NCBI RefSeq assembly: GCF_046105845.1
Contig: NZ_CP151004.1
Strand: one strand, 5' to 3'
From: Escherichia coli
GTDB lineage: Bacteria > Pseudomonadota > Gammaproteobacteria > Enterobacterales > Enterobacteriaceae
DNA length: 64,000 nt
This document shows positions 3,111 to 61,852 of this stretch, one piece after another. The position numbers were made by a program, and so were the translations under genes. Under the pieces are notes generated by a model. That model was not told the origin of the DNA. It was given only the letters and a program-made list of their open reading frames with translations, and did no database searches. Every line of letters starts with the position of its first letter. The first letter of the stretch is position 1.

Positions 3111-3116
3111 AACGAA

Positions 3117-3674: not shown

Positions 3675-4218
3675 AGGATGTTCTAACCTTTTCAATCAGC
3701 TCGGCGTTCTTGCTGCGTAAGTTGCCGCGCATTTTCAGACCGCTGGAGTTAAATGTTGTTCCGTATAACGTGACGAGGTCTTCAGAGGTAACATCCTGCG
3801 TCACCAGATTGATCTGCGCGTTATCCGTCGTGATTCTGCGAAGTTGAGAGTCCGGCACAAGTGCGTTGACTTCAACGTGTCCATATAAATAGAGCATCCG
3901 GTCATTGGTCAGCTTGGCTTTATCTGCTTTTACGGACCATGTCGGGATTTTATCCTTATCAAACGTGGTAAGTACCGGCTGCGTAAACCACGAAACGGCC
4001 TGATCGGAATAATATTCAACATGTTGAGCAATCAATCGATAGCTTAGTGCCCCTTCTGGGTTATAGACGAGCGTGTCCGTATGCTCGCTTTTATAGGTGG
4101 GATCATTGTTGTTGACGACCACCTGGGCGGTATCGTCTTTTTCGGCCATATTAATGCCGATCATCACCAGAACCGCCAGTGATAGCACAATGATAACCCA
4201 ACGTCTGGCTTTACTCAT
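3643..4218 (-). CDS. lptC: Inner-membrane LPS transport protein LptC, 191 aa
   Basis: MSKARRWVIIVLSLAVLVMIGINMAEK N-terminal membrane anchor; 3' end overlaps the lptA start by about 32 nt. Confidence 0.93.
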   Translation of the reverse strand: MSKARRWVIIVLSLAVLVMIGINMAEKDDTAQVVVNNNDPTYKSEHTDTLVYNPEGALSYRLIAQHVEYYSDQAVSWFTQPVLTTFDKDKIPTWSVKADKAKLTNDRMLYLYGHVEVNALVPDSQLRRITTDNAQINLVTQDVTSEDLVTLYGTTFNSSGLKMRGNLRSKNAELIEKVRTSYEIQNKQTQP

Positions 4219-16473: not shown

Positions 16474-16478
16474 TCAGC

Positions 16479-16510
16479 AAAACCCCGGCCATGCGCCGGG
16501 GTTTCTTTTT
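16479..16510. terminator. Bidirectional intrinsic terminator between convergent obgE and dacB
   Basis: aaaaccccggccatgcgccggggtttcttttt: A-run, GC stem, T-run. Confidence 0.8.
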
Positions 16511-39041: not shown

Positions 39042-40943
39042 ATGGCTGAATTCGAAACCACTTTTGCAGATCTGGGCCTGAAGGCTCCTATCCTTGAAGC
39101 CCTTAACGATCTGGGTTACGAAAAACCATCTCCAATTCAGGCAGAGTGTATTCCACATCTGCTGAATGGCCGCGACGTCCTGGGTATGGCCCAGACGGGG
39201 AGCGGAAAAACTGCAGCATTCTCTTTACCTCTGCTGCAGAATCTTGATCCTGAGCTGAAAGCACCACAGATTCTGGTGCTGGCACCGACCCGCGAACTGG
39301 CGGTACAGGTTGCTGAGGCAATGACGGATTTCTCTAAACACATGCGCGGCGTAAACGTGGTTGCCCTGTACGGCGGCCAGCGTTATGACGTGCAATTACG
39401 CGCCCTGCGTCAGGGGCCGCAGATCGTTGTCGGTACTCCGGGCCGTCTGCTGGATCACCTGAAACGTGGCACTCTGGACCTTTCTAAACTGAGCGGTCTG
39501 GTTCTGGATGAAGCTGACGAAATGCTGCGCATGGGCTTCATCGAAGACGTTGAAACCATTATGGCGCAGATCCCGGAAGGTCATCAGACCGCTCTGTTCT
39601 CTGCAACCATGCCGGAAGCGATTCGTCGCATTACCCGCCGCTTTATGAAAGAGCCGCAGGAAGTGCGCATTCAGTCCAGCGTGACTACCCGTCCTGACAT
39701 CAGCCAGAGCTACTGGACTGTCTGGGGTATGCGTAAAAACGAAGCACTGGTACGTTTCCTGGAAGCGGAAGATTTTGATGCGGCGATTATCTTCGTTCGT
39801 ACCAAAAATGCGACTCTGGAAGTGGCTGAAGCTCTTGAGCGTAACGGCTACAACAGCGCCGCGCTAAACGGTGACATGAACCAGGCGCTGCGTGAGCAGA
39901 CACTGGAACGCCTGAAAGATGGTCGTCTGGACATCCTGATTGCGACCGACGTTGCGGCCCGTGGCCTGGACGTTGAGCGTATCAGCCTGGTAGTTAACTA
40001 CGATATCCCGATGGATTCTGAGTCTTACGTTCACCGTATCGGTCGTACTGGTCGTGCGGGCCGTGCTGGCCGTGCGCTGCTGTTCGTTGAGAACCGTGAG
40101 CGTCGTCTGCTGCGCAACATTGAACGCACCATGAAGCTGACCATTCCGGAAGTTGAACTGCCGAACGCAGAACTGCTGGGCAAACGTCGTCTGGAAAAAT
40201 TCGCCGCTAAAGTACAGCAGCAGCTGGAAAGCAGCGATCTGGATCAATACCGTGCACTGCTGAGCAAAATTCAGCCGACTGCCGAAGGCGAAGAGCTGGA
40301 TCTCGAAACTCTGGCCGCCGCACTGCTGAAAATGGCACAGGGTGAACGTACTCTGATTGTTCCGCCAGATGCGCCGATGCGTCCGAAACGTGAATTCCGT
40401 GACCGTGATGACCGTGGTCCGCGCGATCGTAACGACCGTGGCCCGCGTGGTGACCGTGAAGATCGTCCGCGTCGTGAACGTCGTGATGTTGGCGATATGC
40501 AGCTGTACCGCATTGAAGTGGGCCGCGATGATGGTGTTGAAGTTCGTCATATCGTTGGCGCGATTGCTAACGAAGGTGACATCAGCAGCCGTTACATTGG
40601 TAACATCAAGCTGTTTGCTTCTCACTCCACCATCGAACTGCCAAAAGGTATGCCGGGTGAAGTGCTGCAACACTTTACGCGTACTCGCATTCTCAACAAG
40701 CCGATGAACATGCAGTTACTGGGCGATGCACAGCCGCATACTGGCGGTGAGCGTCGTGGCGGTGGTCGTGGTTTCGGTGGCGAACGTCGTGAAGGTGGTC
40801 GTGAAGGCGGTCGTAACTTCAGCGGTGAACGCCGTGAAGGTGGTCGTGGTGATGGTCGTCGTTTTAGCGGCGAACGTCGTGAAGGCCGCGCTCCGCGTCG
40901 TGATGACTCTACCGGTCGTCGTCGTTTCGGTGGTGATGCGTAA
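39042..40943 (+). CDS. deaD: Cold-shock DEAD-box RNA helicase DeaD/CsdA
   Basis: ORF 38976..40943; conserved start [33 protein letters not shown] at ATG 39042; Walker [13 protein letters not shown] motif [11 protein letters not shown]; RGG/RE-rich C-terminal tail. Confidence 0.95.
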
Positions 40944-40969
40944 TCATCGCTGAACAGCGAACACAATCT

Positions 40970-40987
40970 GTAAAATAATATATACAG
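40970..40987. promoter_or_regulatory. TyrR-box-like sequence upstream of mtr
   Basis: TGTAAAataataTATACA versus consensus TGTAAA-N6-TTTACA (one mismatch); overlaps the deaD terminator. Confidence 0.45.
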
Positions 40988-41018
40988 CCCCGATTTTTAC
41001 CATCGGGGCTTTTTTTCT
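40986..41018 (+). terminator. Rho-independent terminator after deaD
   Basis: cagccccgatttttaccatcggggctttttttct. Confidence 0.8.
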
Positions 41019-41026
41019 GTCTTTTG

Positions 41027-41047
41027 TACTCGTGTACTGGTACAGTG
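41027..41047. promoter_or_regulatory. TrpR operator-like palindrome in the mtr promoter region
   Basis: gtACTcGTgtACTgGTACagt resembles the trp operator half-sites ACTAGT..ACTAGTAC; about 50 bp upstream of the mtr ATG. Confidence 0.5.
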
Positions 41048-41096
41048 CAATGCATAACAACGCAGTCGCACTATTTTTCACTGGAGAAAAGCCCTC

Positions 41097-42341
41097 ATGG
41101 CAACACTAACCACCACCCAAACGTCACCGTCGCTGCTTGGCGGCGTGGTGATCATCGGCGGCACCATTATTGGCGCAGGGATGTTTTCTCTGCCAGTGGT
41201 TATGTCCGGGGCGTGGTTCTTCTGGTCAATGGCGGCGCTGATCTTTACCTGGTTCTGTATGCTGCATTCCGGCTTGATGATTCTGGAAGCTAACCTGAAT
41301 TATCGAATCGGTTCTAGCTTTGACACCATCACCAAAGATTTGCTGGGCAAAGGCTGGAACGTAGTCAACGGCATTTCCATTGCCTTTGTGCTCTATATCC
41401 TGACTTACGCCTATATTTCTGCCAGCGGTTCGATTCTGCATCACACCTTCGCGGAGATGTCGCTGAACGTCCCTGCACGGGCAGCTGGATTTGGTTTTGC
41501 ACTGCTGGTAGCGTTCGTGGTGTGGTTGAGTACGAAAGCTGTCAGCCGGATGACAGCAATTGTGCTGGGGGCGAAAGTCATTACTTTCTTCCTCACCTTC
41601 GGCAGCCTGCTGGGGCATGTACAGCCAACGACCTTGTTCAACGTTGCCGAAAGCAATGCGTCTTATGCGCCGTATCTGCTGATGACACTGCCATTCTGTC
41701 TGGCATCGTTTGGTTATCACGGTAACGTGCCGAGCCTGATGAAGTATTACGGCAAAGATCCGAAAACCATCGTGAAATGCCTGGTGTACGGTACGCTGAT
41801 GGCGCTGGCGCTGTATACCATCTGGTTGCTGGCGACGATGGGCAACATCCCTCGTCCGGAGTTTATCGGCATTGCCGAGAAGGGCGGTAACATTGATGTG
41901 CTGGTACAGGCATTAAGCGGCGTGCTGAACAGCCGTAGCCTGGATCTGCTGCTGGTCGTGTTCTCAAACTTTGCGGTAGCGAGTTCGTTCCTCGGCGTTA
42001 CGCTGGGTTTGTTTGACTATCTGGCAGATCTGTTTGGTTTCGATGACTCGGCTATGGGCCGCTTGAAAACAGCATTGTTGACCTTTGCACCGCCTGTTGT
42101 GGGTGGTCTGCTGTTCCCGAATGGATTCCTGTACGCCATTGGCTATGCTGGCTTAGCAGCTACCATCTGGGCGGCAATTGTACCGGCGCTGTTGGCCCGC
42201 GCATCGCGTAAACGCTTTGGCAGCCCGAAATTCCGCGTCTGGGGCGGTAAGCCGATGATTGCGCTGATTCTGGTGTTTGGCGTCGGCAACGCACTGGTGC
42301 ATATTTTATCGAGCTTTAATTTGCTGCCGGTGTATCAGTAA
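41097..42341 (+). CDS. mtr: Tryptophan-specific permease Mtr, 414 aa
   Basis: [50 protein letters not shown]. Confidence 0.95.
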
Positions 42342-42349
42342 TTGAACGA

Positions 42350-42374
42350 GCCGGATGAGCAGTTTTCATCCGGC
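42350..42374. other. Stem-loop just past the mtr stop (weak terminator or junction hairpin)
   Basis: gccggatgagcagttttcatccggc: 8-bp stem, no U-tract. Confidence 0.35.
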
Positions 42375-42401
42375 AATAATTCACAAGTACACGAGATGGT
42401 A

Positions 42402-42932
42402 TCAAATAAACCCCTGTTTATTATAAAGTTCTTCAGCGAGAGCTTCCCCGTGCTCATCGAAAAAAGCATCGGCGATAGTTAAATTTTCTGCCTTAGGATT
42501 TGCCGTTATTTTGCTACCATTGGCATCAAATTCGAGCGCGATAGCGGTCTCCGAACCCCACCAGTAATAATAAATTAGCGCAAAATTATTTTCCCCTGGC
42601 GTAATAAACTTCTCGATTCCCCGCACACAGGCCATGAGTGGCATGAAGATTTCATAGCTCTCTGAGAGAAATATGTGATCCATCGTGACTATCTGTGTTT
42701 CTTTATTAAAGTTGATATGTTCGGCATAAATATTCTTTTCACTTTCACCAGAATTACAAGCTGCAAGATTGTTAAGCATTTTTGCAGGATCGCCGTACAA
42801 CCGCTGCTTCTCGATAAACCATGGCAACCAGTCGTCATGGTCTTTGATATTTGTTGCTGGTGAATGGAAAAACTTCTCGAGGTTACTCTCGGTAATATGT
42901 GCATGAAGAAAAAAGGAAGCCGGTTCACTCAT
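42402..42932 (-). CDS. Hypothetical acidic cytoplasmic protein, 176 aa, no recognizable family
   Basis: ATG at 42930-42932 (minus); MSEPASFFLHAHITESNLEKFFHSPATNIKDHDDW...IYYYWWGSETAIALEF; no signal peptide or TM segment; AT-rich; lies between mtr and yhbW, which I recall as adjacent in K-12. Confidence 0.6.
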   Translation of the reverse strand: MSEPASFFLHAHITESNLEKFFHSPATNIKDHDDWLPWFIEKQRLYGDPAKMLNNLAACNSGESEKNIYAEHINFNKETQIVTMDHIFLSESYEIFMPLMACVRGIEKFITPGENNFALIYYYWWGSETAIALEFDANGSKITANPKAENLTIADAFFDEHGEALAEELYNKQGFI

Positions 42933-43089
42933 AATGATTTTCTCTGGTAATAAGTCGATTTGTTCATTTCTCTGTTTGGCGATGATAAAACGATGACTAT
43001 TTTATAAAAGTACAGAACTGGACCTTTTATCTATTTCATATCATAAGAAAATATATACAAGAACTGGCTCAGAATAAGCGGAATACGAA

Positions 43090-43809
43090 ATGGGGCGTAA
43101 AGGACTACTTGCTATTGTATTGTTGAGCCTGTTTATCGCCATGATTTTTCAATTTTTCTGGCCTGCCCCACACGATGAACACGTTTTCCTGCCAGTTGAA
43201 AAACCTGTCGCACCGTCTTTAAAAATCATTCATCCTGGTGACCAGTTATTTATCCGCATTCTGAAAGCGGAAGATAAGCTGGAACTGTGGGCAAGCACCA
43301 ACAACAAGCCTTACGAACTCTATAAAACCTGGACTATATGCGCGTGGTCTGGTGGCTTAGGGCCAAAACACAAACAGGGGGATGGTAAAAGCCCGGAAGG
43401 TTTTTATGCCACCAACAAAGGGTTGCTTAACCCAAACAGCCGCTATCATCTGGCATTTAATATTGGTTACCCGAATGCTTACGATCGGGCAAACGGCTAC
43501 ACCGGTGATTTCATTATGGTTCACGGGAACTGCGTTTCAGCGGGCTGCTATGCCATGACCGATGCTGGTATTGAAGAGATTTATCAACTGGTGGCGCAGG
43601 CGCTGAATAGCGGGCAGAAGAGCGTGCCGGTGCATATCTTCCCGTTTGCGATGAACGAAGAAAATATGCGCCAGGCGCAGGTATGGCCGGAATATAATTT
43701 CTGGCGTATGTTGAAGCCCGGCTATGATTACTTTGAAAAAAATCGCCGATTGCCAACCATCACCGTTGAAAACCGGCGTTATAAAATCAGCCCAACAATT
43801 CTTCCTTAA
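43090..43809 (+). CDS. YafK/DpaA-like L,D-transpeptidase-fold (YkuD domain) protein, 239 aa
   Basis: [24 protein letters not shown] hydrophobic N-terminus; [19 protein letters not shown]; catalytic-type motif [15 protein letters not shown] (His...Ser-x-Gly-Cys); LKPGYDYFE; 3' end overlaps the yhbW 3' end by 23 bp. Confidence 0.8.
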
Positions 43810-44794
43810 CATCCATCGCCAGTTCAAACGAATGCAGGCGCGCCTGGTGATCGAAAATCTGCCCGTTAACCATAATCTCATCGGCGTCGGTTTCGCGCAG
43901 GATCGACTGCAAGCCATGACGCACTTTCGCTTTATCACCCACCAGCGACATACTCAGCGCCTGCTGCACGCCATACTGCTCGGACGGTGACCAGAACTGA
44001 TCCATATTTTGAATCGGCGGCGGTAGTTGCCCGGTTTCGCCACGGCGCAGCTTCACAAAGGCTTGCTGCATTGAGGTAAAGAGAAATTCAGCGTCGCGGT
44101 TGCTGTCGGCGGCGATAATATTGATGCACACCATCGCATACGGTTTTTCCAGCCGTGCCGACGGTTTGAAGTTGCTGCGATAAAGATGCAGCGCCTGGAA
44201 CAACATATCCGGCGCGAAGTGTGAGGCAAACGCAAACGGCAGACCAAGCTGCGCCGCCAGTTGCGCGCTGTAAAGGCTGGAGCCTAACAACCACACGGGG
44301 ATTTTCTCGCCATAGCCCGGTACCGGGCGCACATGCGGATTGGGATCGCGGGCGTCAAACCAGTCCACCAGCTCCGCGACATCGCGGGGGAAATTATCAA
44401 TATCGCCGCTCATATGACGACGTAGAGCCATCATGGTTCGCTGGTCACTACCCGGAGCACGGCCCAGCCCCAAATCGATTCGCCCCGGATAGAGCGTATT
44501 AAGCGTGCCGAACTGTTCGGCGATCACCAATGGTGAGTGATTAGGCAACATCACGCCGCCAGACCCCAGATGCAGCGTAGTGGTATTCGCCGCCAGATAG
44601 CCAATCAAAACTGATGTTGCAGCACTGGCAATGCCGGTCATATTGTGGTGTTCTGCCAGCCAGTAGCGATGATAGCCGCGCTTTTCAGCCAGACGGGCGA
44701 GCTCGAGAGAGTGGGAGAACGCTTCCCGCGCTGAAGAGCCTTCGGGAATGGGGGCCAGATCGAGTAGCGAAAACGCAATGGTTTTATCAGTCAT
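43787..44794 (-). CDS. yhbW: Luciferase-like (LLM-class) flavin monooxygenase, 335 aa
   Basis: [62 protein letters not shown]. Confidence 0.9.
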
Positions 44795-44874
44795 AACAGC
44801 TCACTTTGTTACCGATTAATCTTTAATACTGCATTAAAGAGTAGTTAAAGTTGTTAACAAAGTGAGCTATTTAC

Positions 44875-45753
44875 TTAGGCTTGCAGCTCCAGCCCAGCCA
44901 GCCGCCGCCAGTAGCCGTTACAGTCGCTGTTTGCCGTCAACGGCAGTGGCGCAGCGCCATTTTCATTGGCGCGGAAGGCGTCGAGCATAGCGAAAGTGTC
45001 AGTCCCCTGCGGTGACAGACGAACCACATCAACCAGTCCCTGCATGGATGCCAGCTCGTTACCGAGGTTGTAAACGTAGCCGCTCATGGTCTGAATGCCG
45101 TTGAGTACAAACACTTGTTGGTTTTCCTGCGACAGCACGTTGCGCCCGTTCGGATACTTAATGCAGCAGGTTTCGCACTCATCTTTCGGGCGGTCTTCCG
45201 AACGCGCGGTAAAGCAGCGGGCGGAGTAGGCCAGCGGCAGATGACCGTAGCTCAGGACTTCCACTTCAAACTGGTTGCGAATGCCCAGCTCATCGCACTG
45301 ATTAAGCAGATTCACCAGCCAGTCGCGGGAAAGCTCCACCGGCATACACCAGCGCATCATGCCCTGTTTGAGCAATATTTTCAGCGTCACCGCGTTGTAG
45401 CAGTTCAGCGCGTGTCCGGCGACGAACGGTAGTTTGCGCTCAGCGCACATATTCACCACGCCGAGATCGCTGGCTTCAATCAGAAACTCACCGTTCTCAA
45501 CATAGCGTTTCAGTTCGCCCAGTTCAGAGGATGCCTGCACCAGCGCCAGCGTGGAGAGCACAATCTGCTTACCACTTCCGGCGAGTGATTTTGCCATCTC
45601 CAGCCAGTCGCCAACTTTGGTTGCCCGGCGCTTGCTGCATACCGCTTCACCAAGATAAATCACGTCGGCGCTGCTGGCGGCGGCCTGCTGATAAAATTCT
45701 TCCAGCGTCTCTTTTGGCCAGTACCACAGCACTGGCCCTAAGGAATATTTCAT
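44875..45753 (-). CDS. ubiV: U32-peptidase-family protein UbiV (YhbV), O2-independent ubiquinone biosynthesis
   Basis: ORF 44875..45771; conserved start MKYSLGPVLWYWPKETLEEFYQQAA at ATG 45751-45753; Cys cluster PKDECETCC. Confidence 0.88.
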   Translation of the reverse strand: MKYSLGPVLWYWPKETLEEFYQQAAASSADVIYLGEAVCSKRRATKVGDWLEMAKSLAGSGKQIVLSTLALVQASSELGELKRYVENGEFLIEASDLGVVNMCAERKLPFVAGHALNCYNAVTLKILLKQGMMRWCMPVELSRDWLVNLLNQCDELGIRNQFEVEVLSYGHLPLAYSARCFTARSEDRPKDECETCCIKYPNGRNVLSQENQQVFVLNGIQTMSGYVYNLGNELASMQGLVDVVRLSPQGTDTFAMLDAFRANENGAAPLPLTANSDCNGYWRRLAGLELQA

Positions 45754-45761
45754 TGCTTTTC

Positions 45762-46757
45762 TCACTGCCATTTACGGTGATACGCGCCAAGGGTGGTCTG
45801 CGTGCCTTCGGACATCGACCCGAGCGTCTCCATCCACGCGCTTTGCGGTATGAAGTTTTGCGGATCGGCCTTACAACGGTCGATAGCCTGACGCCAGACT
45901 TTCGCCACCTGGCTGACATACGCCGGGCTACGCTGGCGGCCTTCAATTTTCACCGAAGCAATATTCGCTGCCATTAACTCCGGCAGCAGTTCCAGGGTAT
46001 TGAGACTGGTGGGTTCTTCCAGCGCGTGATAGCGCTCGCCGTCCACCAGATAACGCCCTTTACACAGCGTCGGATAACCTGCGTTTTCGCCATCCTGATA
46101 ACGGTCGATCAGCACTTCGTTCAGGCGAGATTCCAGCCCCTGCGGCGTTTGCTGCCAGCGCACGAAACGGGCCGGAGAACACGCACCCACAGTGTTGGGC
46201 GACTCACCCGTCAGATACGACGACAGATAGCAACGCCCTTCCGACATAATGCACAGGCTGCCGAAAGCAAACACTTCCAGCGGGACAGGTGTGACCCGTG
46301 CCAGTTGTTTCACCTGATGAATCGACAACACGCGCGGCAGCACCACGCGGGCAACGTCAAAATGGCGATGATAAAAGTTAATCGCCTCTTCATTGGTCGC
46401 CGAAGCCTGCACTGACACATGACGCTCAATATGCGGGTAACGCTCGGCGGCGTACTCCAGCATGGCGAGGTCGGCGAGGATCAGCGCGTCGGCACCCAGC
46501 TGCGCCGCCATATCCACGGCGCGCTGCCAGCGGGCGTAACCGTCCGGGTGCGCAAAAGTGTTAATCGCGATGTGAAGTTTGCGGCGATGTTGATGGACAA
46601 AACTCACCGCTTCCTGCAATTTTTTCTCGGTAAAGTTAAGGCCGGCGAAGTGACGGGCATTGGTATCATCTTTTAGCCCGATATAAACAGCATCTGCGCC
46701 GTTTTCGATGGCCGCCTTAAGCGCCGGGAGATTTCCGGCAGGGCAGAGCAGCTCCAT
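45762..46757 (-). CDS. ubiU: U32-peptidase-family protein UbiU (YhbU)
   Basis: ORF 45762..46784; conserved start MELLCPAGNLPALKAAIENGADAVYIGL at ATG 46755-46757; Cys-rich FGSLCIMSEGRCYLSSYLTGESPNTVGACSPA. Confidence 0.88.
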   Translation of the reverse strand: MELLCPAGNLPALKAAIENGADAVYIGLKDDTNARHFAGLNFTEKKLQEAVSFVHQHRRKLHIAINTFAHPDGYARWQRAVDMAAQLGADALILADLAMLEYAAERYPHIERHVSVQASATNEEAINFYHRHFDVARVVLPRVLSIHQVKQLARVTPVPLEVFAFGSLCIMSEGRCYLSSYLTGESPNTVGACSPARFVRWQQTPQGLESRLNEVLIDRYQDGENAGYPTLCKGRYLVDGERYHALEEPTSLNTLELLPELMAANIASVKIEGRQRSPAYVSQVAKVWRQAIDRCKADPQNFIPQSAWMETLGSMSEGTQTTLGAYHRKWQ

Positions 46758-50103: not shown

Positions 50104-51144
50104 ATGACTGGTCAGTCTTCATCTCAGGCGGCAACGCCCATTCAGTGGTGGAAACCCGCGCTTTTCTTTCTCGTTGTCATTGCTGGTCTCTGGTATGTGA
50201 AATGGCAACCTTACTACGGCAAAGCGTTTACTGCTGCCGAAACCCACAGTATCGGTAAATCTATCCTTGCGCAGGCGGATGCTAATCCGTGGCAGGCGGC
50301 GTTGGATTACGCGATGATCTATTTCCTCGCGGTATGGAAAGCGGCGGTGCTGGGCGTACTGCTCGGGTCGTTGATTCAGGTGCTGATTCCGCGTGACTGG
50401 TTGCTGCGTACGCTTGGGCAATCGCGCTTTCGCGGCACGCTGCTGGGAACGCTGTTTTCGCTGCCGGGCATGATGTGTACCTGCTGTGCGGCTCCGGTCG
50501 CGGCGGGAATGCGTCGCCAACAGGTATCGATGGGCGGGGCGCTGGCATTCTGGATGGGGAATCCGTTGTTAAACCCGGCGACGCTGGTGTTTATGGGGTT
50601 TGTCCTCGGCTGGGGGTTTGCGGCGATTCGTCTGGTGGCGGGGCTGGTGATGGTGTTGCTGATTGCGACGCTGGTGCAAAAATGGGTACGTGAAACACCG
50701 CTAACGCAGGCACCGGTCGAAATTGACATACCGGAAGCGCAGGGCGGATTTTTTAGCCGCTGGGGCAGGGCGCTATGGACGCTTTTCTGGAGTACGATCC
50801 CGGTTTATATCCTTGCCGTACTGGTGTTGGGTGCCGCTCGCGTCTGGTTATTCCCCCATGCTGATGGTGCTGTCGATAACAGCCTGATGTGGGTGATTGC
50901 GATGGCGGTAGCGGGATGCTTGTTTGTCATTCCAACGGCAGCAGAAATTCCAATTGTACAAACGATGATGCTGGCAGGCATGGGAACCGCTCCGGCGCTG
51001 GCATTGTTGATGACGCTCCCGGCGGTGAGTTTGCCGTCACTGATTATGCTGCGCAAAGCGTTCCCGGCGAAAGCCTTATGGCTGACGGGGGCGATGGTGG
51101 CAGTGTCAGGTGTGATTGTCGGCGGGTTGGCGCTGTTGGCCTAA
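50104..51144 (+). CDS. yraQ: Predicted permease, 346 aa
   Basis: MTGQSSSQAATPIQWWKPALFFLVVIAGLWYVKWQPYYGK; multi-pass membrane protein with Cys cluster GMMCTCCAAP. Confidence 0.88.
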   Translation: MTGQSSSQAATPIQWWKPALFFLVVIAGLWYVKWQPYYGKAFTAAETHSIGKSILAQADANPWQAALDYAMIYFLAVWKAAVLGVLLGSLIQVLIPRDWLLRTLGQSRFRGTLLGTLFSLPGMMCTCCAAPVAAGMRRQQVSMGGALAFWMGNPLLNPATLVFMGFVLGWGFAAIRLVAGLVMVLLIATLVQKWVRETPLTQAPVEIDIPEAQGGFFSRWGRALWTLFWSTIPVYILAVLVLGAARVWLFPHADGAVDNSLMWVIAMAVAGCLFVIPTAAEIPIVQTMMLAGMGTAPALALLMTLPAVSLPSLIMLRKAFPAKALWLTGAMVAVSGVIVGGLALLA

Positions 51145-51178
51145 GATGTTGGATGCTCCTGAATACAGCACTGGACGG

Positions 51179-51215
51179 TCCCCTCTCCCCTTTGGGGAGA
51201 GGGTTAGGGTGAGGG
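51179..51215. repeat. GC-rich perfect hairpin plus canonical G-quadruplex motif between convergent yraQ and dolP
   Basis: ccctctcccc ttt ggggagaggg (10-bp perfect stem) then GGGG-aga-GGG-tta-GGG-tga-GGGG on the + strand; no U-tract. Confidence 0.6.
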
Positions 51216-51265
51216 GAACAGGTCGGCTAAGGTGTGAATATTTACTTCAACGACCGATCAATGGC

Positions 51266-51841
51266 TTATTTAATAAACGTAAACGCCGTGGTTACCCGCT
51301 TCACGCCGCTTACCCGGCTGGCAATATCTGCCGCCGCTTTCGCTTCACGTTCAGTCACTAGCCCCATCAGGAACACTTCACCGTTTTCGGTGGTCACTTT
51401 CACGTTGGACGATTTCACCAGGTCGCTGGTTAAGAGCTGCGAACGCACTTTGGTGGTGATCCACGTATCGTTAGACGCTTCGCCCAGACCAATCGGCTGG
51501 CCCTGACGAATCTCGTTATACACTTCGTTGGCACCGTCTACGCCCATAGCAATCTGTTTGGCGCGAGCCGAAAGTTCAGCGTTTGGTGACTGCCCAACCA
51601 GCAGCACTTTGCCCTGATACGCCGTGACATTAATACGGGTTTCTTTCTTAATCTGTTCGTCTTTCGACAATGCGCTGTTTACGCGCACTTCCAGGGTACC
51701 ATCGTCCACCTGGGTGCCGACACTGCGTGGGTCAGTTGCGGCTTTGGTACCTACAGCAGCGGTACCCACTACGGCAGCGGCAACACAACCTTGCAACAGC
51801 AGCGCGGAAAGAAGGACTGCGATTGGCGATAATGCCTTCAT
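51266..51841 (-). CDS. dolP: Dual-BON-domain outer-membrane lipoprotein DolP (YraP), 191 aa
   Basis: MKALSPIAVLLSALLLQGCVAAAVVGTAAVGTKAATDPRSVGTQVDDGTLEVRVNSAL (lipobox LQGC). Confidence 0.93.
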   Translation of the reverse strand: MKALSPIAVLLSALLLQGCVAAAVVGTAAVGTKAATDPRSVGTQVDDGTLEVRVNSALSKDEQIKKETRINVTAYQGKVLLVGQSPNAELSARAKQIAMGVDGANEVYNEIRQGQPIGLGEASNDTWITTKVRSQLLTSDLVKSSNVKVTTENGEVFLMGLVTEREAKAAADIASRVSGVKRVTTAFTFIK

Positions 51842-55775: not shown

Positions 55776-55790
55776 GCCTGCTGCTGGAAA

Positions 55791-56885
55791 TTACCTGACA
55801 ATAACCGTAATGGTAGCTGATGCTTTAAAAGGTCCGGTCGACAATACTCCACCGACCAGATTTACAGGATAAGCCTGAAAGTGTGTTGTTCCTGCTCCGG
55901 TTTTATCTAGCAGAATGATGCCTGGATTAAATGGAACATCTACTTGCCCTTTAGTCACATCCATAAGGCGGATACCAACATCAGGGACATCATCACTTTC
56001 ACGGCGTCTTGCGACTAAATTATATTGATTAACATAATCTGAACCTTCAATTTTCATATACAAGCTATTGTTAATTTGGGACATATCACCGCAATCATAG
56101 GTAATATCAAAGCTTACTGGAGTGTAACCTGTTGGCATCTGATTTTGTAGGGTGAAACGTTGAGCGCTAATAAATCCAAGATTTACATTAATGGTATCAC
56201 CTTGATTTATTTTGCAACTTTGAGGTACCGTAATTCGGCCTTGAATATAGATTTTAGCAATATCCTTAATGGGACGTGGTGCAGCAGAAGTACTTGTCCA
56301 CGCAGCCTGGACTGAAGCAATATGTGTTTCAGGGATATTCAGTTCACCCAAAAATGGCGTAGTGACGTATAGTGTAATCGTTGTATTTTTACCAATAGAA
56401 AAGTCTGATCCCCGAACATTGGCTGGGTCGGCCATGCACACACTATTGTTTTTGTTAGCATGGTAAGTACCAGTACCGTCTCTAAGCGGTGTATATGAAT
56501 TGCTTGGAACCATAACAGATGGATTACCAGGAATGTCGTTTATTTGGGTTTTAATATCCAGATTAGAATTCAGTCGATAGAAATCTCGTTCTTTACCTTG
56601 AGTTATTAATGCAGATGTTACTGTATAATACAGGTTAACTTTACTACCTGCCGGACAAGAGCAGTTTAAGGTGTAATTGCTCCCAATAGCTGAATTCTTT
56701 ACCACATAATCTTTGCCGGCAACATTATTATCTTGTGTCCAGTCCTCAGAAGCATCTGTCCGAAATTCACCTGTTCCTTCACAATCACCTGTTGCTGCCT
56801 TTACCGATGGGCTAAGTAACAGGGGGGAGACCACGGCAGCAATAGACAATAGTTGTTTAATCATTTTGAAACTCCCTAAAGACAC
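55791..56885 (-). CDS. yraK: Putative fimbrial adhesin/tip protein of the yra chaperone-usher operon
   Basis: MSLGSFKMIKQLLSIAAVVSPLLLSPSVKAATGDCEGTGEF (signal peptide; start could be the internal MIKQ); last gene of the usher operon. Confidence 0.85.
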   Translation of the reverse strand: MSLGSFKMIKQLLSIAAVVSPLLLSPSVKAATGDCEGTGEFRTDASEDWTQDNNVAGKDYVVKNSAIGSNYTLNCSCPAGSKVNLYYTVTSALITQGKERDFYRLNSNLDIKTQINDIPGNPSVMVPSNSYTPLRDGTGTYHANKNNSVCMADPANVRGSDFSIGKNTTITLYVTTPFLGELNIPETHIASVQAAWTSTSAAPRPIKDIAKIYIQGRITVPQSCKINQGDTINVNLGFISAQRFTLQNQMPTGYTPVSFDITYDCGDMSQINNSLYMKIEGSDYVNQYNLVARRRESDDVPDVGIRLMDVTKGQVDVPFNPGIILLDKTGAGTTHFQAYPVNLVGGVLSTGPFKASATITVIVR

Positions 56886-59398
56886 TTTGCCGAATCACGA
56901 ATAATGGGGGTAGTGATGTTCGCGCTATCGTTCAGACTAAACGTAAACTGGCATTGTTGGTTTATTCCACTTCCCCAGCGAACCTTCCAGGTTTGTGGTT
57001 TTTTATTAATGCCGGAGAGATAAATAACTCCAGCTTCATCGACAATACTTTGTTGGAATTGGCCTTCATTACTGGCAACAGCACCAAAAGGAATGGGCTT
57101 ACCTTGGACGTCAGTTAGTGCTAATAGCACTCTGTGACCGGTTTGGGCATTAAAATTTGCAACGACAGCGGCGCCCTGTCCTGGCACGACAATCTTTGCA
57201 GTCTCCTGGACATCTACATTATCCGGCATTGTAGTAGTGTCTAAGGCAATACGATTTTCCTGATAAGCCGTTAAATAAGGGATGACGGCGTAACCAAAGT
57301 AATCGGTGGCAATACCAGGGTAATTTTTAACCCGAATATTAGATGCACCCTGGGTATCAATTACGGCAAATGTATTACCCAGCGGTTGTGAGAGAGTCAC
57401 CCCATGGGGGTGTGCGACAATTCCACCTGAAAGACCATAGCTGAACTGGCGACTGTTTGACGTGTAATCATAGTTGGCGTTAACAGTGCCATAAGCAGAG
57501 CGGTAACTACCAGAAAGCGTACTGCCGTTATTATTATTTTCCTGGTCCATTCGTTGTTTAAAGCTGTAACTTAATCGGTTGTCATCAAGGAAAGAACCGG
57601 TAATGCCAGTCTCATATTGAGTTGAACGGTATTTTTCATCAGTGACACGAAACGTAGCTTGTGCATTAGGTAACCAACGATCCAGAGGCAGACTAATACT
57701 AAAAAAGATTGCCCTATCACTATCGCGATCGGAATAATCTGTGAATTGTCCACTCACGCTGTAGCTGATGCCGGCAAGATAGCCGTTCAGTCCGGCAGAA
57801 TAATTGCGATCATTTTGTTCTGCTCCCCAGTATTCTCGTTGTGCACCTGAAATATAAAAACTGAGATTATCAGTCAGCGTTTGGTTAACGTTGAAAATCG
57901 CTTCGCTGCGTTGGCGATTGTTTACATTAATATCACGTTGGTTTGCGTCGGCAAAGGTAAAAAAAACTGAGTTGGAATAGCGCGAGTAACTAAGAGAAAG
58001 GCTTGTTCCTGTTTCGGGTATATCTTTAATATATTGAAAACGTAAACCTTCCCCGGTAAATTTTTCTTTATTTTCTAACTTCGTTTTGGCATAAGTTAAA
58101 TCAACGGAAAGTGCGCCCAAAATACTCAATGTGCTACCGATGCCTAATGCTGCTGCTTGATAATCCTTGGATCCAGTTACCCCACCATAAAGAGTGAAAA
58201 TATTAGTAAGGCCGTAAAATGCTGTGCCTTCGATGAACTCTGGTTCTTTACTATTAGATGACGGGTCTGCACGAAATCGCCCTGCTGTCATGCTATATAA
58301 AAGATGGCCTGGCCGTTGCATAACAGGAAGTGCTGAAAACGGCTGAGTAAATTGGCGAACGGTACCATCGGCTTCTTCAATTGTAACGTCTAAATCACCG
58401 CTAAATGAGGATGGATAGAGATCGTTGATTTCGAATGCTCCCGCCGGGACATTGCTTTGATAAATTGTATAGCCATTCTGGCGGATGGTGACTATTGCGC
58501 TGGTATTGGCAATCCCACGGATAATCGGTGCAAAACCTCGTAAGCTATTCGGTAACATGTTCTCGTCAGAATAAATTCTGGCACCCGTAAACTGAACGCT
58601 GGAAAAAATTGTGCCATCAGTGGCGCTTTCACCAAGCACTAATTGCGACTTTAAACTCTTAATATCACGCTGCAACCAACTATTAATACTATCCCAGCGA
58701 GTCTCATTACTGCTATGTGTCCACGTGGAGTAATTACGCAACCGCCATGGGCCGATATTGACTCCATTTTGCATATTGAGATAAAACCTTTCATTCTTTT
58801 CGCTGTTACTATAATAACTGTTCGAGCCACTAAAACTGTAATTGGTAAACAATACTGGAATACCATGATCCCACCTGGCGGGATCAACATAACCAGAAGG
58901 GTCACGCCGCAGGGCAATTTGTGGAATGTCCAGGATGAGAGTGCTATGGTTGAGGTCTATCTTTGTTTTGCTTCCAGGTACGGTTTTGGATAAATCTGTT
59001 ATCAGGGCGTTGTCATCAAGAGTATTTAGTGAATTTATTTCGTCAACTTTAAAACCCAATTCGCGTAAAAGACCAACGGTAAGCTGTGGGCGAATTTCTC
59101 CATTATCATCTATAGCAAAAGTGATTTTTCTCTGAGTCACCTTTTTTTTATTGATAACGATCTCAACATCATAATCACCGGGACTATGAGTATTTTTACC
59201 GGAGAAAGCAGATAAATCGCTTGCCTTTTGACCACTCTTTGTTGTTTCCAGCAATGAGGGATCAAAATAGTAATTGTCAGCAATGGCATGAAGAGGGGAC
59301 AGAACTCCACCAGTAATAAGAACAGGTAATACTGTTTTTAACCAGCAGGAAAGTGGTTTCATAACAGGTAAAGAGATGCATTTTATTTTGGTTTTCAT
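56876..59398 (-). CDS. yraJ: Fimbrial outer-membrane usher protein, 840 aa
   Basis: MKTKIKCISLPVMKPLSCWLKTVLPVLITGGVLSPLHAIADNYYFDPSLLE; usher-size beta-barrel protein; C-terminal Cys pair. Confidence 0.92.
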   Translation of the reverse strand: MKTKIKCISLPVMKPLSCWLKTVLPVLITGGVLSPLHAIADNYYFDPSLLETTKSGQKASDLSAFSGKNTHSPGDYDVEIVINKKKVTQRKITFAIDDNGEIRPQLTVGLLRELGFKVDEINSLNTLDDNALITDLSKTVPGSKTKIDLNHSTLILDIPQIALRRDPSGYVDPARWDHGIPVLFTNYSFSGSNSYYSNSEKNERFYLNMQNGVNIGPWRLRNYSTWTHSSNETRWDSINSWLQRDIKSLKSQLVLGESATDGTIFSSVQFTGARIYSDENMLPNSLRGFAPIIRGIANTSAIVTIRQNGYTIYQSNVPAGAFEINDLYPSSFSGDLDVTIEEADGTVRQFTQPFSALPVMQRPGHLLYSMTAGRFRADPSSNSKEPEFIEGTAFYGLTNIFTLYGGVTGSKDYQAAALGIGSTLSILGALSVDLTYAKTKLENKEKFTGEGLRFQYIKDIPETGTSLSLSYSRYSNSVFFTFADANQRDINVNNRQRSEAIFNVNQTLTDNLSFYISGAQREYWGAEQNDRNYSAGLNGYLAGISYSVSGQFTDYSDRDSDRAIFFSISLPLDRWLPNAQATFRVTDEKYRSTQYETGITGSFLDDNRLSYSFKQRMDQENNNNGSTLSGSYRSAYGTVNANYDYTSNSRQFSYGLSGGIVAHPHGVTLSQPLGNTFAVIDTQGASNIRVKNYPGIATDYFGYAVIPYLTAYQENRIALDTTTMPDNVDVQETAKIVVPGQGAAVVANFNAQTGHRVLLALTDVQGKPIPFGAVASNEGQFQQSIVDEAGVIYLSGINKKPQTWKVRWGSGINQQCQFTFSLNDSANITTPIIRDSAKCL

Positions 59399-59450
59399 TA
59401 TTCCCTTATTTCCTTATTCCCTGTCATATGTATAAGTTTTGTATAAATAA

Positions 59451-60143
59451 TTATGGCAAAGTAGATGTATATGTATCCGTATTACCGCCATAGTCATTAA
59501 TGGCTGCCCATTTCACGATGTTTTCTGAAACTAATGGCAATGGTAATTGCTTATGTTCACCCGGTGCAATAAATTCTATTTTATCGGTAAAGTCGGTTTT
59601 TCCTACAGCCAGTCCTGAAAAAACAACGTAATATGCCGAAGGATTATATATCTCCAGTTGGTTGTTCTTCCTTGAGAATTTTAGGCCTTTATAGGCATCT
59701 GAAGGTCTACCGTCCATTTCTGATGGTCTGTAAAAGAGTTTAATGCGTGTTTTAAATACTAAAGTAAGTAGGTTCTTATCTTGCGTTTCTTTTTTATCGA
59801 CAGCAGGAATTGCACGGACGTTAATATAAAAAAGTGATTCTTTATCTCTCGGTAGATTGCCATCGGTTTTAATGATACGCAATGAAGAGTTGTCTCCGGC
59901 ATCAAGACGAAATAGCGGAGGGGTAATAATAAAAGGGCCGCGAGAAGAGTCATAGATATTTTCAACCCACGATTGTAATAAATATGGTGGTTTATCACTT
60001 CGATTAGTGACCGGCAATGCAGCTTCTTTTTTACTACCATCATAAACTACACGCGTTCTTTCCAGAAGGATTCCACCAGCCAGACTCTGGTTCACCCAGC
60101 CAGCTAATAGAAAAAGTATTGCAAACGATTTTTTAATCTTCAT
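59451..60143 (-). CDS. yraI: PapD-like periplasmic fimbrial chaperone, 230 aa
   Basis: [62 protein letters not shown]. Confidence 0.92.
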
Positions 60144-60232
60144 CTTCTGTTACCGCTACGAAATAAAATTGTCTCTTTAACAGCAGACCGCTAAAGAGAC
60201 AAAATAAAGGATTATGAACTAATGACTAGTTA

Positions 60233-60805
60233 TCAACGATAATCAAGAGTTACATCCACAGTAGCATTAGCTTCACCGGGTTTGATTTTATCGGCTGTTG
60301 TGGTTGACACATAGTAAGCCGCTAAATCTAAATTCATCGTGGAACCAGTAATTGGGAAAGATATCTTTGGAACACTAAGTTTGTTAATTGCCATAGGTGT
60401 TTGAGCATCTTTTTCAATCCGAATACCAACACCTGTAGCCGCGGTATCTGGGTCCATACTTGTAACAGCAACTAACTCATTGTTATCACCGGTAGTTGCT
60501 CCGTTACGCGTTTCCAGCCATAACTGGAAAGACGCATCTTTAGTACCATCAATGTGATCCCAGGCTACCGTTGGGCAGTTTTTCAACGGAATAGTGAAAG
60601 GGATCGTAGGGGATTTATCCCCTTTAAACTTAAACTGATTAGCGGCATAGTGACCTAATTCAACATAAACTGTATCACCATTCGCAAATTCACAGACAGT
60701 GCCAAGAATTTCACCCGTGAATTCAATTTTTCCATCGGTTGCGGAGGCGCTACCGGCAAAAAGCGCCAGCAGGCCAGCGGCAACTGTCTTAGCTACTTTA
60801 CTCAT
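60233..60805 (-). CDS. yraH: Fimbrial major subunit (pilin), 190 aa
   Basis: MSKVAKTVAAGLLALFAGSASATDGKIEFTGEILGTVCEF (signal peptide, conserved Cys pair); first gene of the usher operon. Confidence 0.9.
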   Translation of the reverse strand: MSKVAKTVAAGLLALFAGSASATDGKIEFTGEILGTVCEFANGDTVYVELGHYAANQFKFKGDKSPTIPFTIPLKNCPTVAWDHIDGTKDASFQLWLETRNGATTGDNNELVAVTSMDPDTAATGVGIRIEKDAQTPMAINKLSVPKISFPITGSTMNLDLAAYYVSTTTADKIKPGEANATVDVTLDYR

Positions 60806-61285
60806 AAGATAACCTTAGTCCTTGTAACTAGTACTTCGAATAAATATGAAATGTAAGATTCTTTTCAACAACAGAAACGATTATACCTACTGAAGCATGG
60901 AGTGGATAAAAAATAGTCATTTTTAAGAATATATTTATATTTCCTGAAGCTATTTAAAAACCATATATATTAGTATTGATTATGTTATGATGTGAATGTA
61001 GTAAGACTAAAAGGGTAATTATAAGTATAATTCAATGGGTTGATAGCAGTTATTGTAATGATAATCACTAATATTGACTTTTGTAGTTATGAGTTGTGAA
61101 CTGTAAGAATAAAATGTAATATGTTATGACGTTTAATAGTTGATGTTGTTAAATATAAGCTTAATTAAACTATATGATATTGAAAAAGTGGGGATGGATA
61201 ACTAAAACTATTTTGCCTGTATATACGAGCAGTGGAAGGGGTTTGCACAGGAAGCCCTTTCTTCTGTTGAACAGGCCTCCCCTAC
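60806..61285 (-). promoter_or_regulatory. Extremely AT-rich upstream/regulatory region of the yraHIJK fimbrial operon
   Basis: About 480 bp of long A/T tracts (e.g. atatatattagtattgattatgttatgatgtgaatg); no convincing ORF; typical of nucleoid-protein-silenced fimbrial promoters. Confidence 0.45.
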
Positions 61286-61403
61286 GATGGTTGCAGAACG
61301 GGCGTTCTTCTGCGAGTGCTCTGACACGTTATCGATAGCCTTCACTGGCCGTGAATCAGACGATTATCAATACGAGTTAAGAGAATATTTGACAATGTCA
61401 TGT
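61286..61403 (-). pseudogene. Relic of a mannose-family PTS operon: EIIB start (19 codons) joined out of frame to an EIID-like fragment
   Basis: Minus strand from ATG 61401-61403 reads MTLSNILLTRIDNRLIHGQ* (EIIB-Man hallmark RIDxRLIHGQ); the next frame reads VKAIDNVSEHSQKNARSATI, about 80 percent nucleotide-identical to agaD 62874-62950 (VKAIDKVRENSQMIARSATI). Confidence 0.6.
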
Positions 61404-61451
61404 TTTTATTTCCTATCATCCATTTCACCTTTATTTGGTTTATCAGAGGGC

Positions 61452-61482
61452 AATAAAAAAGGCAGATAATTAATTATCTGCC
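61452..61482 (-). terminator. Intrinsic terminator on the minus strand about 370 nt downstream of agaI
   Basis: Perfect palindrome ggcagataattaattatctgcc (61461-61482) followed on the minus strand by a U-run (complement of aaaaaa 61455-61460). Confidence 0.6.
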
Positions 61483-61852
61483 TGATGTGTCATGCTTTTT
61501 TTGCATCCGTTCTCATGTTTTTACCAGAAAATATCTTTGTGTGCCGAAGTTAAAACGTAAGTAATTTCACCGTTTTGCACATAGTGGCAGCAACCTTCAA
61601 TAATGATTCTGGCATTGCAAGCAAAATGATTGACCCATTCGGTCGCTGTGTGTCCGCTTTTTTCGTTGGCGGGTTTTGTTCTGATTACTGAACAACGTAA
61701 CGTGTTTATCTATAAATTAAACAGTGAACATAATTTCATTTTTAAGTGAAATTATGTTCAAGTTGATTACAGATTACTTAACTTAAAATATAGTTAATGA
61801 AGTTAAAGTATTGGTTTTGGCGTATTAGTCGTATTTCTGATAAAGAAAGTGG

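Follow-up and report, generated by a model that had tools for sequence, protein, structure and literature searches.

Two convergent core genes of Escherichia coli, mtr and yhbW, raise the question of whether the DNA found between them here is an inserted and undescribed module, as the initial annotation of the locus proposed. In the window (the whole stretch of 64,000 nucleotides that was analysed) the 3′ ends of the two genes lie 1,445 bp apart by ORF coordinates. In K-12 MG1655 they are immediate neighbours, as the initial annotation stated, and adjoin directly across a REP-containing spacer of 117 bp. The immediate neighbourhood in the RefSeq annotation comprises mtr, deaD, yhbW and ubiV.

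Organization and composition of the locus

The accessory segment holds only two ORFs, named here genes A and B. Their divergent arrangement, with 176 aa encoded on the minus strand and 239 aa on the plus strand across a spacer of 157 bp, was confirmed at every coordinate. The features of the locus are the following:

41097-42341, plus strand: mtr, tryptophan permease, left flanking core gene (ORF; annotated as mtr in the identical strain Ecol_316; K-12 homology to 42342)
42343-43790, unstranded: accessory segment, 1,448 bp, GC 43.2% (no K-12 counterpart by blastn)
42350-42374, unstranded: hairpin rich in GC, GCCGGATGAG / TTCATCCGGC, in the gap that separates the mtr stop codon from that of gene A (predicted by folding)
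42402-42932, minus strand: gene A, 176 aa (ORF and RefSeq annotation)
42933-43089, unstranded: divergent intergenic region, 157 bp, 30.6% GC
43090-43809, plus strand: gene B, 239 aa (ORF; NCBIfam, Pfam and PDB matches)
43787-43809, unstranded: convergent overlap of the gene B and yhbW 3′ ends, 23 bp (ORF coordinates; the same overlap is annotated in RefSeq)
43787-44794, minus strand: yhbW, luciferase-like monooxygenase, right flanking core gene (ORF, annotation and K-12 comparison)

Homology to K-12 in blastn ends at the mtr stop (42342) and restarts at 43791, at the yhbW stop, and the last codons of gene B are read from DNA homologous to the 3′ end of K-12 yhbW. The GC content is 41.2% in gene A, 30.6% in the A-B spacer and 47.1% in gene B, compared with 53.4% in mtr, 56.1% in yhbW and 50.6% in the entire window. 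Similarly, GC3 is 0.42 for gene A and 0.51 for gene B against 0.63–0.67 in the flanks. Thus the AT-richness noted at the outset is borne out, both islet genes falling below mtr and yhbW in GC and in GC3.

Two intergenic elements border gene A. The hairpin at 42350-42374 folds with -18.1 kcal/mol on the plus strand (z = -3.3) and -19.6 kcal/mol on the minus strand (z = -3.8), has a weak T-tract and is probably a bidirectional terminator common to mtr and gene A. The spacer at 42933-43089 is presumably the site of both promoters; since a simple sigma-70 scan of this region returned no consensus promoter, its promoter function we only infer. The spacer is kept among the E. coli and Salmonella alleles, with the exception of one strain in which it is 79.5% identical. 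A structured RNA in the spacers was considered and rejected, as no Rfam match was obtained at E ≤ 1.

Distribution of the islet

Of 5,426 complete E. coli genomes, 183 (3.4%) carry the segment, always as one chromosomal copy at this same site; about 96.6% of these genomes lack it, and so does K-12. Comparison with K-12 and with a genome panel, which had been proposed as the way to establish accessory status, therefore upholds it. Genes A and B are not ordinary core genes of K-12 and essentially all Escherichia, the K-12 site being empty, and the mtr/yhbW segment is a genuine accessory islet that is rare in E. coli.

The mtr/yhbW site also holds the A-B pair in Salmonella (L010/L011), Superficieibacter, K. 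oxytoca-type contigs and gut MAGs, and the proteins of the pair are 60–95% identical across E. coli, Salmonella, K. oxytoca and Superficieibacter. Cluster membership includes many Salmonella and K. oxytoca assemblies. A scan of species-representative genomes gave matches in Superficieibacter and Leminorella only, a sampling too sparse for inferring absence elsewhere. The islet is ordinary, previously annotated accessory genome of the Enterobacteriaceae and no new kind of system; the result is useful at the level of annotation and leaves current concepts unchanged.

Exchange between genera

Between the window and Salmonella L011 the flanks are 84–86% identical at the nucleotide level, with dS values of 0.73 for mtr and 1.02 for yhbW, whereas the islet genes are 93–95% identical, with dS values of 0.19 for gene A and 0.23 for gene B. 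An islet dS of about 0.2, far below the flank dS of 0.7–1.0, indicates exchange of the islet between the two genera. Divergence among the E. coli islet alleles is nearly as great as their divergence from the Salmonella allele. DNA from ~39900 to 46500 is more divergent from K-12 than the adjoining sequence, and mtr varies unusually strongly among the strains that carry the islet (dS 0.14–0.28).

The segment contains no integrase, transposase or other mobility gene, the annotation places no tRNA at the mtr/yhbW site, and the flanks display no direct or inverted repeats of note, only imperfect repeats of 12–20 nt. No plasmid copy was found, the sole "plasmid" match being a 4.9-Mb chromosome filed in a plasmid collection, and the phage matches, two short unannotated records of about 50% identity, were not meaningful. 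Thus the locus carries none of the marks of an integrative element (integrase or transposase, direct repeats, attachment site), and a mobile element, prophage or plasmid origin was rejected in view of the missing mobility genes and flanking repeats. Of the proposal that the islet was "inserted", the difference between occupied and empty sites stands, but an insertion event is doubtful, because mobility traits are lacking (no integrase, repeats, tRNA, plasmid or phage copy) and A and B are paired at this position in Salmonella, K. oxytoca and Superficieibacter as well. On these same grounds the islet looks like an old resident of the mtr/yhbW site that has been lost and regained through homologous exchange. 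The conserved flanks would serve homologous recombination, by which the segment is lost or is swapped between strains and even genera. The locus is a small, clean example of genes passing between Escherichia and Salmonella with no mobile element involved.

Selection on genes A and B

Among E. coli and Salmonella alleles, dN/dS is 0.07–0.12 for gene A and 0.13–0.19 for gene B. Judged by these ratios (0.07–0.19 overall) and by conservation across genera, A and B are real genes under purifying selection; spurious ORFs lacking homologs, the other outcome foreseen in the initial annotation, were rejected on this evidence.

The same ratios argue against the islet being a decaying remnant that has no present function in E. 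coli and is retained by drift in a few lineages. So do the intact frames of A and B in the window and the retention of at least 80% of the segment in 183 of 183 E. coli carriers. Decay would nevertheless fit the rarity of the islet in E. coli (3.4%), the many truncated forms in Salmonella and K. oxytoca, the loss of gene A in E. fergusonii and the occurrence of gene B as a pseudogene in E. coli SC434, and the balance leaves this explanation distinctly unlikely. Weak selection in some lineages is suggested by the SC434 pseudogene, by the truncated forms of B that are common in Salmonella and by the truncated forms of A in K. oxytoca.

Gene B belongs to the YafK/DpaA/LdtF subfamily

Gene B is annotated in RefSeq as "L,D-transpeptidase family protein" (WP_000532754.1) and matches the Pfam YkuD model PF03734 with E = 2.8e-6. 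It shares fold family and a similar length with DpaA, and in an alignment of 196 residues its identity to the solved DpaA structure (PDB 8IKR) is 51%. In this alignment K83, H135, C143 and A145 of DpaA correspond to K93, H145, C153 and A155 of gene B. The catalytic-loop His and Cys that define a YkuD protein are therefore present (H145/C153) within a His-Gly...Ser-x-Gly-Cys-Tyr-Ala-Met loop, as are the two marks of a DpaA-type active site, the equivalent of Lys83 (K93) and an Ala two residues past the catalytic Cys (A155). In DpaA the catalytic Cys143, Lys83 and Ala145, which replaces the transpeptidase Arg, form the basis of hydrolase rather than transpeptidase chemistry (PMC10653827). By these profile and active-site matches gene B is a member of the well-studied YafK/DpaA/LdtF subfamily. 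Its score against NCBIfam NF040599 is 252.5 bits, under the equivalog cut-off of 365, and gene B is thus a paralog within the subfamily and not a DpaA equivalog. In contrast to DpaA, which is core, it is accessory and AT-rich. Its closest relatives outside the islet are located downstream of atpC in Budviciaceae, and literature searches found no published assay of gene B.

The N-terminus of gene B displays a charged start followed by a hydrophobic core, and by eye no small-x-small cleavage site is apparent in the window allele; the E. fergusonii and MAG alleles carry A-L-G and A-A-G in this segment. DpaA differs in this respect, being a soluble protein whose residues 1–19 constitute a cleavable signal peptide. 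The gene B product may be exported or membrane-anchored, anchoring being suggested by the lack of an obvious signal-peptidase site.

DpaA cleaves the amide bond that links the meso-diaminopimelate (mDAP) of a stem peptide to the C-terminal Lys of Braun's lipoprotein (Lpp). In gene B, the N-terminal hydrophobic segment would bring the product to the periplasmic side, where it would most likely act as DpaA does, as a Cys/His hydrolase of the YkuD fold (Cys153, His145). It would cut the mDAP-Lys (Lpp) bond or the equivalent bond in another wall-tethered protein; with a score so far below the equivalog cut-off, it may act on another substrate than DpaA. From such DpaA-like action, carriers would gain another activity that detaches lipoprotein and is controlled separately; its expression would start in an AT-rich region, one probably silenced under standard conditions.

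Lpg1514 of Legionella pneumophila, a protein of the YafK family, performs serine-dependent hydrolysis of beta-lactams, and the published alignment of this family includes two S. Typhimurium proteins, Q8ZLT7 and Q7CR54 (PMC13400389). Gene B probably has its Salmonella ortholog in one of these two. Lpg1514 is placed in the same YafK subfamily as gene B; its beta-lactam activity is weak. Several YafK homologs are reported to turn over beta-lactams (PMC13400389), which lends some weight to the alternative that gene B has diverged to another chemistry, such as L,D-carboxypeptidase activity, the release of some other protein from the wall, or the binding and slow hydrolysis of beta-lactams. The sub-equivalog score, the 51% identity to DpaA and an N-terminal targeting segment unlike that of DpaA point in the same direction. 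As a known core gene of E. coli, dpaA accompanies gene B in all carriers, and a second identical activity beside it therefore seems redundant. Lys83, Cys143, Ala145 and the catalytic loop S-x-G-C-Y-A-M are, however, kept in both DpaA and gene B, and we judge a different chemistry unlikely, if deserving of consideration.

If gene B is active in the DpaA-like manner that we favour, a minority of E. coli possess two enzymes releasing Braun's lipoprotein, as would many Salmonella and K. oxytoca assemblies. This would bear on studies of outer-membrane tethering, vesicle release and envelope stress that assume a single DpaA, and on dpaA knock-outs in non-K-12 strains.

Gene A belongs to an uncharacterised family

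Gene A is named "hypothetical" or "cytoplasmic protein" in RefSeq (WP_001294022.1), and sequence searches against Pfam, NCBIfam, PADLOC and PDB returned no match. Its product is a cytoplasmic, soluble protein of alpha/beta type, well folded in the AlphaFold model (pLDDT 88), and its family is uncharacterised. The wider family comprises 132 representative clusters; its range includes Proteobacteria and Bacteroidota, and it is widespread in bacteria that, like Bacteroidota, are not known for type III secretion. Gene A is a marker of this sizeable family, which has neither a Pfam nor an NCBIfam model.

The N-terminus is the most distinctive trait of the family. About 80 of the ~105 full-length representatives begin with M-S-E and several with M-A-E or M-A-D, while in four exported relatives the predicted signal-peptide cleavage would leave an S/T-E N-terminus. 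In its mature form the N-terminus thus hardly varies: a small residue, then Glu. An Ntn-hydrolase identity, considered in view of the conserved N-terminal Ser, which calls for a mature Ser/Thr/Cys nucleophile in a four-layer alpha-beta-beta-alpha fold, did not hold and the idea is weakened, as the M-A-E and M-A-D members exclude an obligate N-terminal nucleophile.

A Salmonella cluster that is 95% identical to gene A carries the source name "cytoplasmic protein [Salmonella enterica]", a description it shares with STM3278 of S. Typhimurium LT2. By LT2 gene order and this shared name, STM3278 would be gene A in LT2, and STM3277 is presumably the gene B counterpart. STM3278, listed as "putative cytoplasmic protein", has been computationally predicted to be a type III effector (PMC3240867). 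This role was rejected for gene A, since its family is common in phyla that are not known to have type III secretion, for example Bacteroidota. A PADLOC defence system was also rejected, neither A nor B giving a match at E ≤ 1.

Family members were found in six kinds of genomic context, with neighbours that include cupin, Smr, DoxX, MamF-like, LRR, GntP and SymE-like proteins. No neighbour recurs among the contexts examined, no member has a tandem paralog and no toxin gene adjoins a member in any of the six kinds. The last result bears directly on the proposal that gene A encodes orphan immunity to a polymorphic toxin, protecting against competitors, with gene B as unrelated cargo. Such a protein would suit the small size, cytoplasmic location, AT-richness and patchy distribution of gene A, the tandem fusion of two copies in one family member (P0031) and the automatic SMI1/KNR4 names that some relatives bear in the AlphaFold database. 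However, besides the absence of a toxin gene beside every member examined, none of 40 members matched a Pfam immunity family, or indeed any Pfam model, at E ≤ 0.001. Moreover, some members are exported, and the strongly conserved N-terminus and core motifs would be unusual for fast-evolving immunity proteins. We regard the proposal as highly improbable.

Relationship between genes A and B

In E. fergusonii gene B adjoins yhbW and a malonate-decarboxylase cluster takes the place of gene A, whereas Chania and Leminorella carry gene A without B nearby; a gene A homolog is also present in Providencia. Since each gene occurs without the other in further taxa, A and B are separable and a functional module is not supported. 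Of the "undescribed module" first proposed, the uncharacterised status of gene A stands, but gene B belongs to a known subfamily and is annotated in RefSeq, and a joint A-B function did not hold up. Presence and absence, synteny, exchange between genera, purifying selection, and the family and active-site residues of gene B are established directly. The explanation that best accommodates the whole, and which we consider fairly probable, is an exchangeable mtr/yhbW islet devoid of mobility functions that carries a DpaA-like gene B and gene A as a passenger. Gene A would be a passenger independent of B, and any function ascribed to it is conjectural.

That A and B form one module, in which cytoplasmic A regulates B or processes a wall product released by B, such as a recycled peptide, appears rather unlikely. 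In four genera the two genes diverge from an AT-rich spacer at one and the same site, with 60–95% protein identity, and the near-invariant N-terminus of A, exposed also in the four exported relatives, suggests a defined biochemical activity. Against this stand the solitary genes of E. fergusonii, Chania and Leminorella, the predicted location of the two products in different compartments, and the distant gene A family members, which have neither a YkuD neighbour nor any recurrent neighbour. A bolder version would make the gene A family a new enzyme or ligand-binding family of ~180 residues that depends on an N-terminus freed by Met removal or signal cleavage, recruited in Enterobacteriaceae beside a DpaA paralog as a two-compartment envelope-remodelling module spread by recombination through the flanks; this we hold to be very unlikely.

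A known pair invites comparison with the islet. Tlde1 of Salmonella is an L,D-transpeptidase-like effector of type VI secretion, against which periplasmic Tldi1 confers immunity; as in the islet, the gene of a YkuD-like enzyme adjoins that of a small partner, in Salmonella and its relatives. In such pairs the effector lacks a signal peptide, the immunity protein has one, and type VI genes are linked. The topology of the islet is nevertheless reversed, as enzyme B has an N-terminal hydrophobic segment and partner A is cytoplasmic and lacks one. Gene B also belongs to the YafK and not to the Tlde1 subfamily. No type VI genes were found near the islet among the window ORFs or in the annotation, and an effector/immunity pair of this type was rejected on topology and gene context.

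A second departure from the K-12 backbone

The islet had been described as the only place in the window where gene content leaves the conserved backbone. This was wrong, as yraHIJK also departs from K-12: the fimbrial region at 55776-61871 is a strongly divergent allele, 65–69% identical to K-12 at the nucleotide level.

Organization and distribution of the mtr-yhbW segment

On the E. coli chromosome, the site lies within the gene order pnp-nlpI-deaD-mtr ... yhbW-ubiV-ubiU and comprises the following features.

Features of the mtr-yhbW segment in the window
3' end at 42341, mtr, left flank of the islet
42350-42374, GC-rich hairpin between the stops of mtr and gene A
42402-42932, minus strand, gene A (WP_001294022.1), ORF of 176 aa
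42933-43089, spacer between genes A and B, 157 bp
43090-43809, plus strand, gene B (WP_000532754.1), ORF of 239 aa
43787-44794, minus strand, yhbW, right flank of the islet

The 3' ends of gene B and yhbW overlap through the final 23 bp of gene B. The GC content is 41.2% in gene A, 30.6% in the spacer and 47.1% in gene B, against 53-56% in the flanking genes; both the coordinates and the picture of an AT-rich two-ORF islet in the initial annotation are thus right. Homology to K-12 MG1655 stops at 42342 (mtr stop) and restarts at 43791 (yhbW stop). The two core genes are 117 bp apart in K-12, and this spacer, unrelated to the islet when the window and K-12 are compared, looks by eye like REP-type palindromic repeats. 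The suspected absence of the segment from K-12 is therefore borne out, and the islet is accessory, being carried by 183 of 5,426 complete E. coli genomes, always chromosomal and in one copy. Identity to the window is at least 99% in 168 carriers, 95-99% in 10 and 90-95% in 5. Nearly all islet-free genomes display a short K-12-like spacer, into which several have received a copy of IS621 of the IS110 family (hits H55-H57, H59 and H65), so that the locus exists in at least three states. An apparent plasmid copy in PLSDB is a collection artefact, since the record (NZ_CP141089.1, 4.94 Mb, E. coli) is evidently a chromosome.

Genes A and B as co-residents of one site

The divergent A-B pair also lies between mtr and yhbW in Salmonella enterica, with clusters of about 950-1,050 sequences and two gene A alleles that each occur on at least 1,000 contigs. 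It occupies the same site in Superficieibacter, K. oxytoca-type contigs and gut MAGs. A true functional module is a rival, less likely reading of this recurrent pair. However, each gene is found without the other, and A and B are therefore treated as co-resident, not as a proven module. In E. fergusonii (two loci, positions 1-3680), gene B adjoins yhbW and is 90.5% identical at the nucleotide level from codon 15 on, while a malonate-decarboxylase cluster (CitG/MdcB-like, OAD_beta and Mal_decarbox_Al) replaces gene A and the spacer directly upstream. The yhbW-adjacent site thus holds different accessory cargo according to species. Gene A stands alone among unrelated genes in Chania and Leminorella. 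In Leminorella grimontii (Budviciaceae; locus L013, 5001-10543) its homolog lies ~4.4 kb from a yhbW ortholog, with SymE-like, Sel1/TPR-like, formylglycine-generating-enzyme-like and 2-hydroxyacid dehydrogenase genes between them, and at another locus (L025) a distant homolog of gene A has a luciferase-like monooxygenase ~6 kb away. The closeness of yhbW-like genes to distant gene A homologs may be coincidence.

Exchange between genera

Synonymous divergence (dS) between the window and a Salmonella locus (L011) is 0.73 for mtr and 1.02 for yhbW, against 0.19 for gene A and 0.23 for gene B, with nucleotide identities of 93-95% in the islet and 84-86% in the flanks. These values show that the two islet copies share a common ancestor much more recent than that of their flanks, which requires Escherichia-Salmonella transfer into the same site. 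Towards Superficieibacter and the K. oxytoca type the islet genes are instead more divergent (66-78%) than the flanks (80-84%), which fits old residence at the site together with faster evolution. E. coli islet alleles are 2-6% apart, almost as far as they are from the Salmonella allele. The flanking genes mtr and yhbW are also unusually divergent among carriers (dS 0.14-0.29); between the window and a second E. coli locus (L003), dS is 0.28 for mtr, 0.29 for yhbW, 0.13 for gene A and 0.17 for gene B. This pattern points to import of the flanks or to a long-standing polymorphism of the locus. In the window, the tract ~39900-46500 (deaD 3' end, mtr, yhbW, ubiV and ubiU) is ~96% identical to K-12, falling to 90% at 41400-41699, whereas neighbouring stretches are 99-100% identical, consistent with import of the islet along with its flanks by homologous recombination.

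The dN/dS values of 0.07-0.19 indicate purifying selection on both genes, against which functional decay of the islet has to be weighed as an alternative. Decay is also present: gene B is a pseudogene in E. coli SC434, and truncated forms are common for gene B in Salmonella and for gene A in K. oxytoca.

Gene B is a DpaA/YafK paralog

Gene B matches Pfam YkuD and, with 252.5 bits, NCBIfam LdtF_DpaA_YafK, under the 365-bit equivalog cut-off; its alignment with the E. coli DpaA crystal structure (PDB 8IKR) spans 196 residues at 51% identity. The hydrolase rather than transpeptidase chemistry of DpaA is ascribed to catalytic Cys143, to Lys83, held in a shallow, single-entrance cleft, and to Ala145, whose position is an exposed Arg in transpeptidases (PMC10653827). 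Alignment to DpaA reveals that gene B retains its active-site Lys, His, Cys and Ala, as K93, H145, C153 and A155. Its N-terminus, MGRKG followed by ~20 hydrophobic residues, would carry the catalytic domain over the inner membrane, and may act either as a cleaved signal or as an anchor; no standard signal-peptidase site is seen by eye in the window allele, and other alleles display A-L-G or A-A-G in this segment. Gene B would thus be a periplasm-facing Cys/His hydrolase that, by analogy with DpaA, most likely cuts Braun's lipoprotein, or another mDAP-tethered protein, off peptidoglycan. An altered substrate or a beta-lactam-related activity is the competing reading of a paralog that scores below the equivalog threshold and keeps the DpaA-type residues. 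The AT-rich control region suggests that gene B may be separately regulated and normally silenced; a simple scan of this region found no consensus promoter. Outside the islet, gene B is closest to genes that follow atpC in Leminorella and Budvicia, and E. albertii is among the recorded sources of B-type proteins.

Gene A belongs to an uncharacterised protein family

Searches of Pfam, NCBIfam, PADLOC and the PDB sequence set give no match for gene A, and PHROGs yields only a noise-level one (E = 0.29). Its near homologs form just 22 clusters, all of them from Enterobacterales, and profile searching across 1.84 billion representatives extends the family to 132 clusters of ~180-aa proteins; none of 40 diverse members matches Pfam. 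AlphaFold predicts with confidence (pLDDT 88, pTM 0.85) a two-layer alpha/beta fold, with which Foldseek retrieves ~70 uncharacterised AlphaFold-database relatives from Pseudomonas, Burkholderia, Bacteroidota and others. The N-terminus is striking: it is M-S-E-P in most members (67 of the full-length representatives), alongside M-S-E-x and a few M-A-E forms. Four members (P0039, P0061, P0064 and P0098) have a signal peptide, and their predicted cleavage (…SVSA↓SEP…, …LHA↓SEP…, …LWA↓SEP… and …SSA↓TEL…) would bare the same S/T-E-(P/L) N-terminus as in cytoplasmic forms. Because exported and cytoplasmic members end up with the same N-terminus, these sequences suggest that the free mature N-terminus matters for function; variants with Ala count against an obligate Ser nucleophile there. 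One 399-aa member (P0031) consists of two copies fused in tandem. The neighbourhoods compared share no genes among distant members, and the loci covered contain no tandem gene A copies. Gene A would act as an independent cytoplasmic protein, an orphan immunity protein being a much less likely alternative. A scan of species-representative genomes recovered gene A from Superficieibacter and Leminorella only; it conflicts with the protein clusters, where very many assemblies of S. enterica and K. oxytoca have sequences that agree with the patterns searched for, and is not used as evidence of absence.

Novelty and significance

Searches with the RefSeq protein accessions, DpaA/YafK paralogs in Salmonella and STM3277/STM3278 (probable S. 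Typhimurium LT2 counterparts of the islet genes, judged by gene order and, for STM3278, a shared name) found no published study of the islet. The only traces are STM3278 in a computational list of type III effectors (PMC3240867) and a 2026 alignment (PMC13400389) that includes Q8ZLT7 and Q7CR54, both YafK-family proteins of S. Typhimurium, one of which is probably the gene B ortholog. The islet is a genuine accessory two-gene segment with pre-existing annotation. The initial proposal of an accessory or undescribed module holds for its accessory nature; gene B is already labelled "L,D-transpeptidase family protein" in RefSeq, and the two genes are separable. The segment pairs a known enzyme's unstudied paralog with a member of an unmodelled protein family and does not constitute a new type of system. 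Its significance is modest and lies mainly in three points: some pathogens may have a second enzyme that detaches Lpp, the islet has passed between genera with no mobile element involved, and the gene A family is uncharacterised.

Other departures from K-12

The islet had been regarded as the only departure from the conserved backbone, but there is a second at 55776-61871 (rsmI-agaI, GC 39.8%), which aligns patchily to K-12 yraK-yraJ-yraI-yraH at 65-69% nucleotide identity; here the entire chaperone-usher fimbrial operon is present as a strongly divergent allele. At ~16476-16480, ~150 bp of K-12 cgtA-dacB intergenic DNA is missing, and at 51139-51266 ~125 bp between yraQ and dolP is swapped for sequence unrelated to K-12; both differences are probably REP-type elements.
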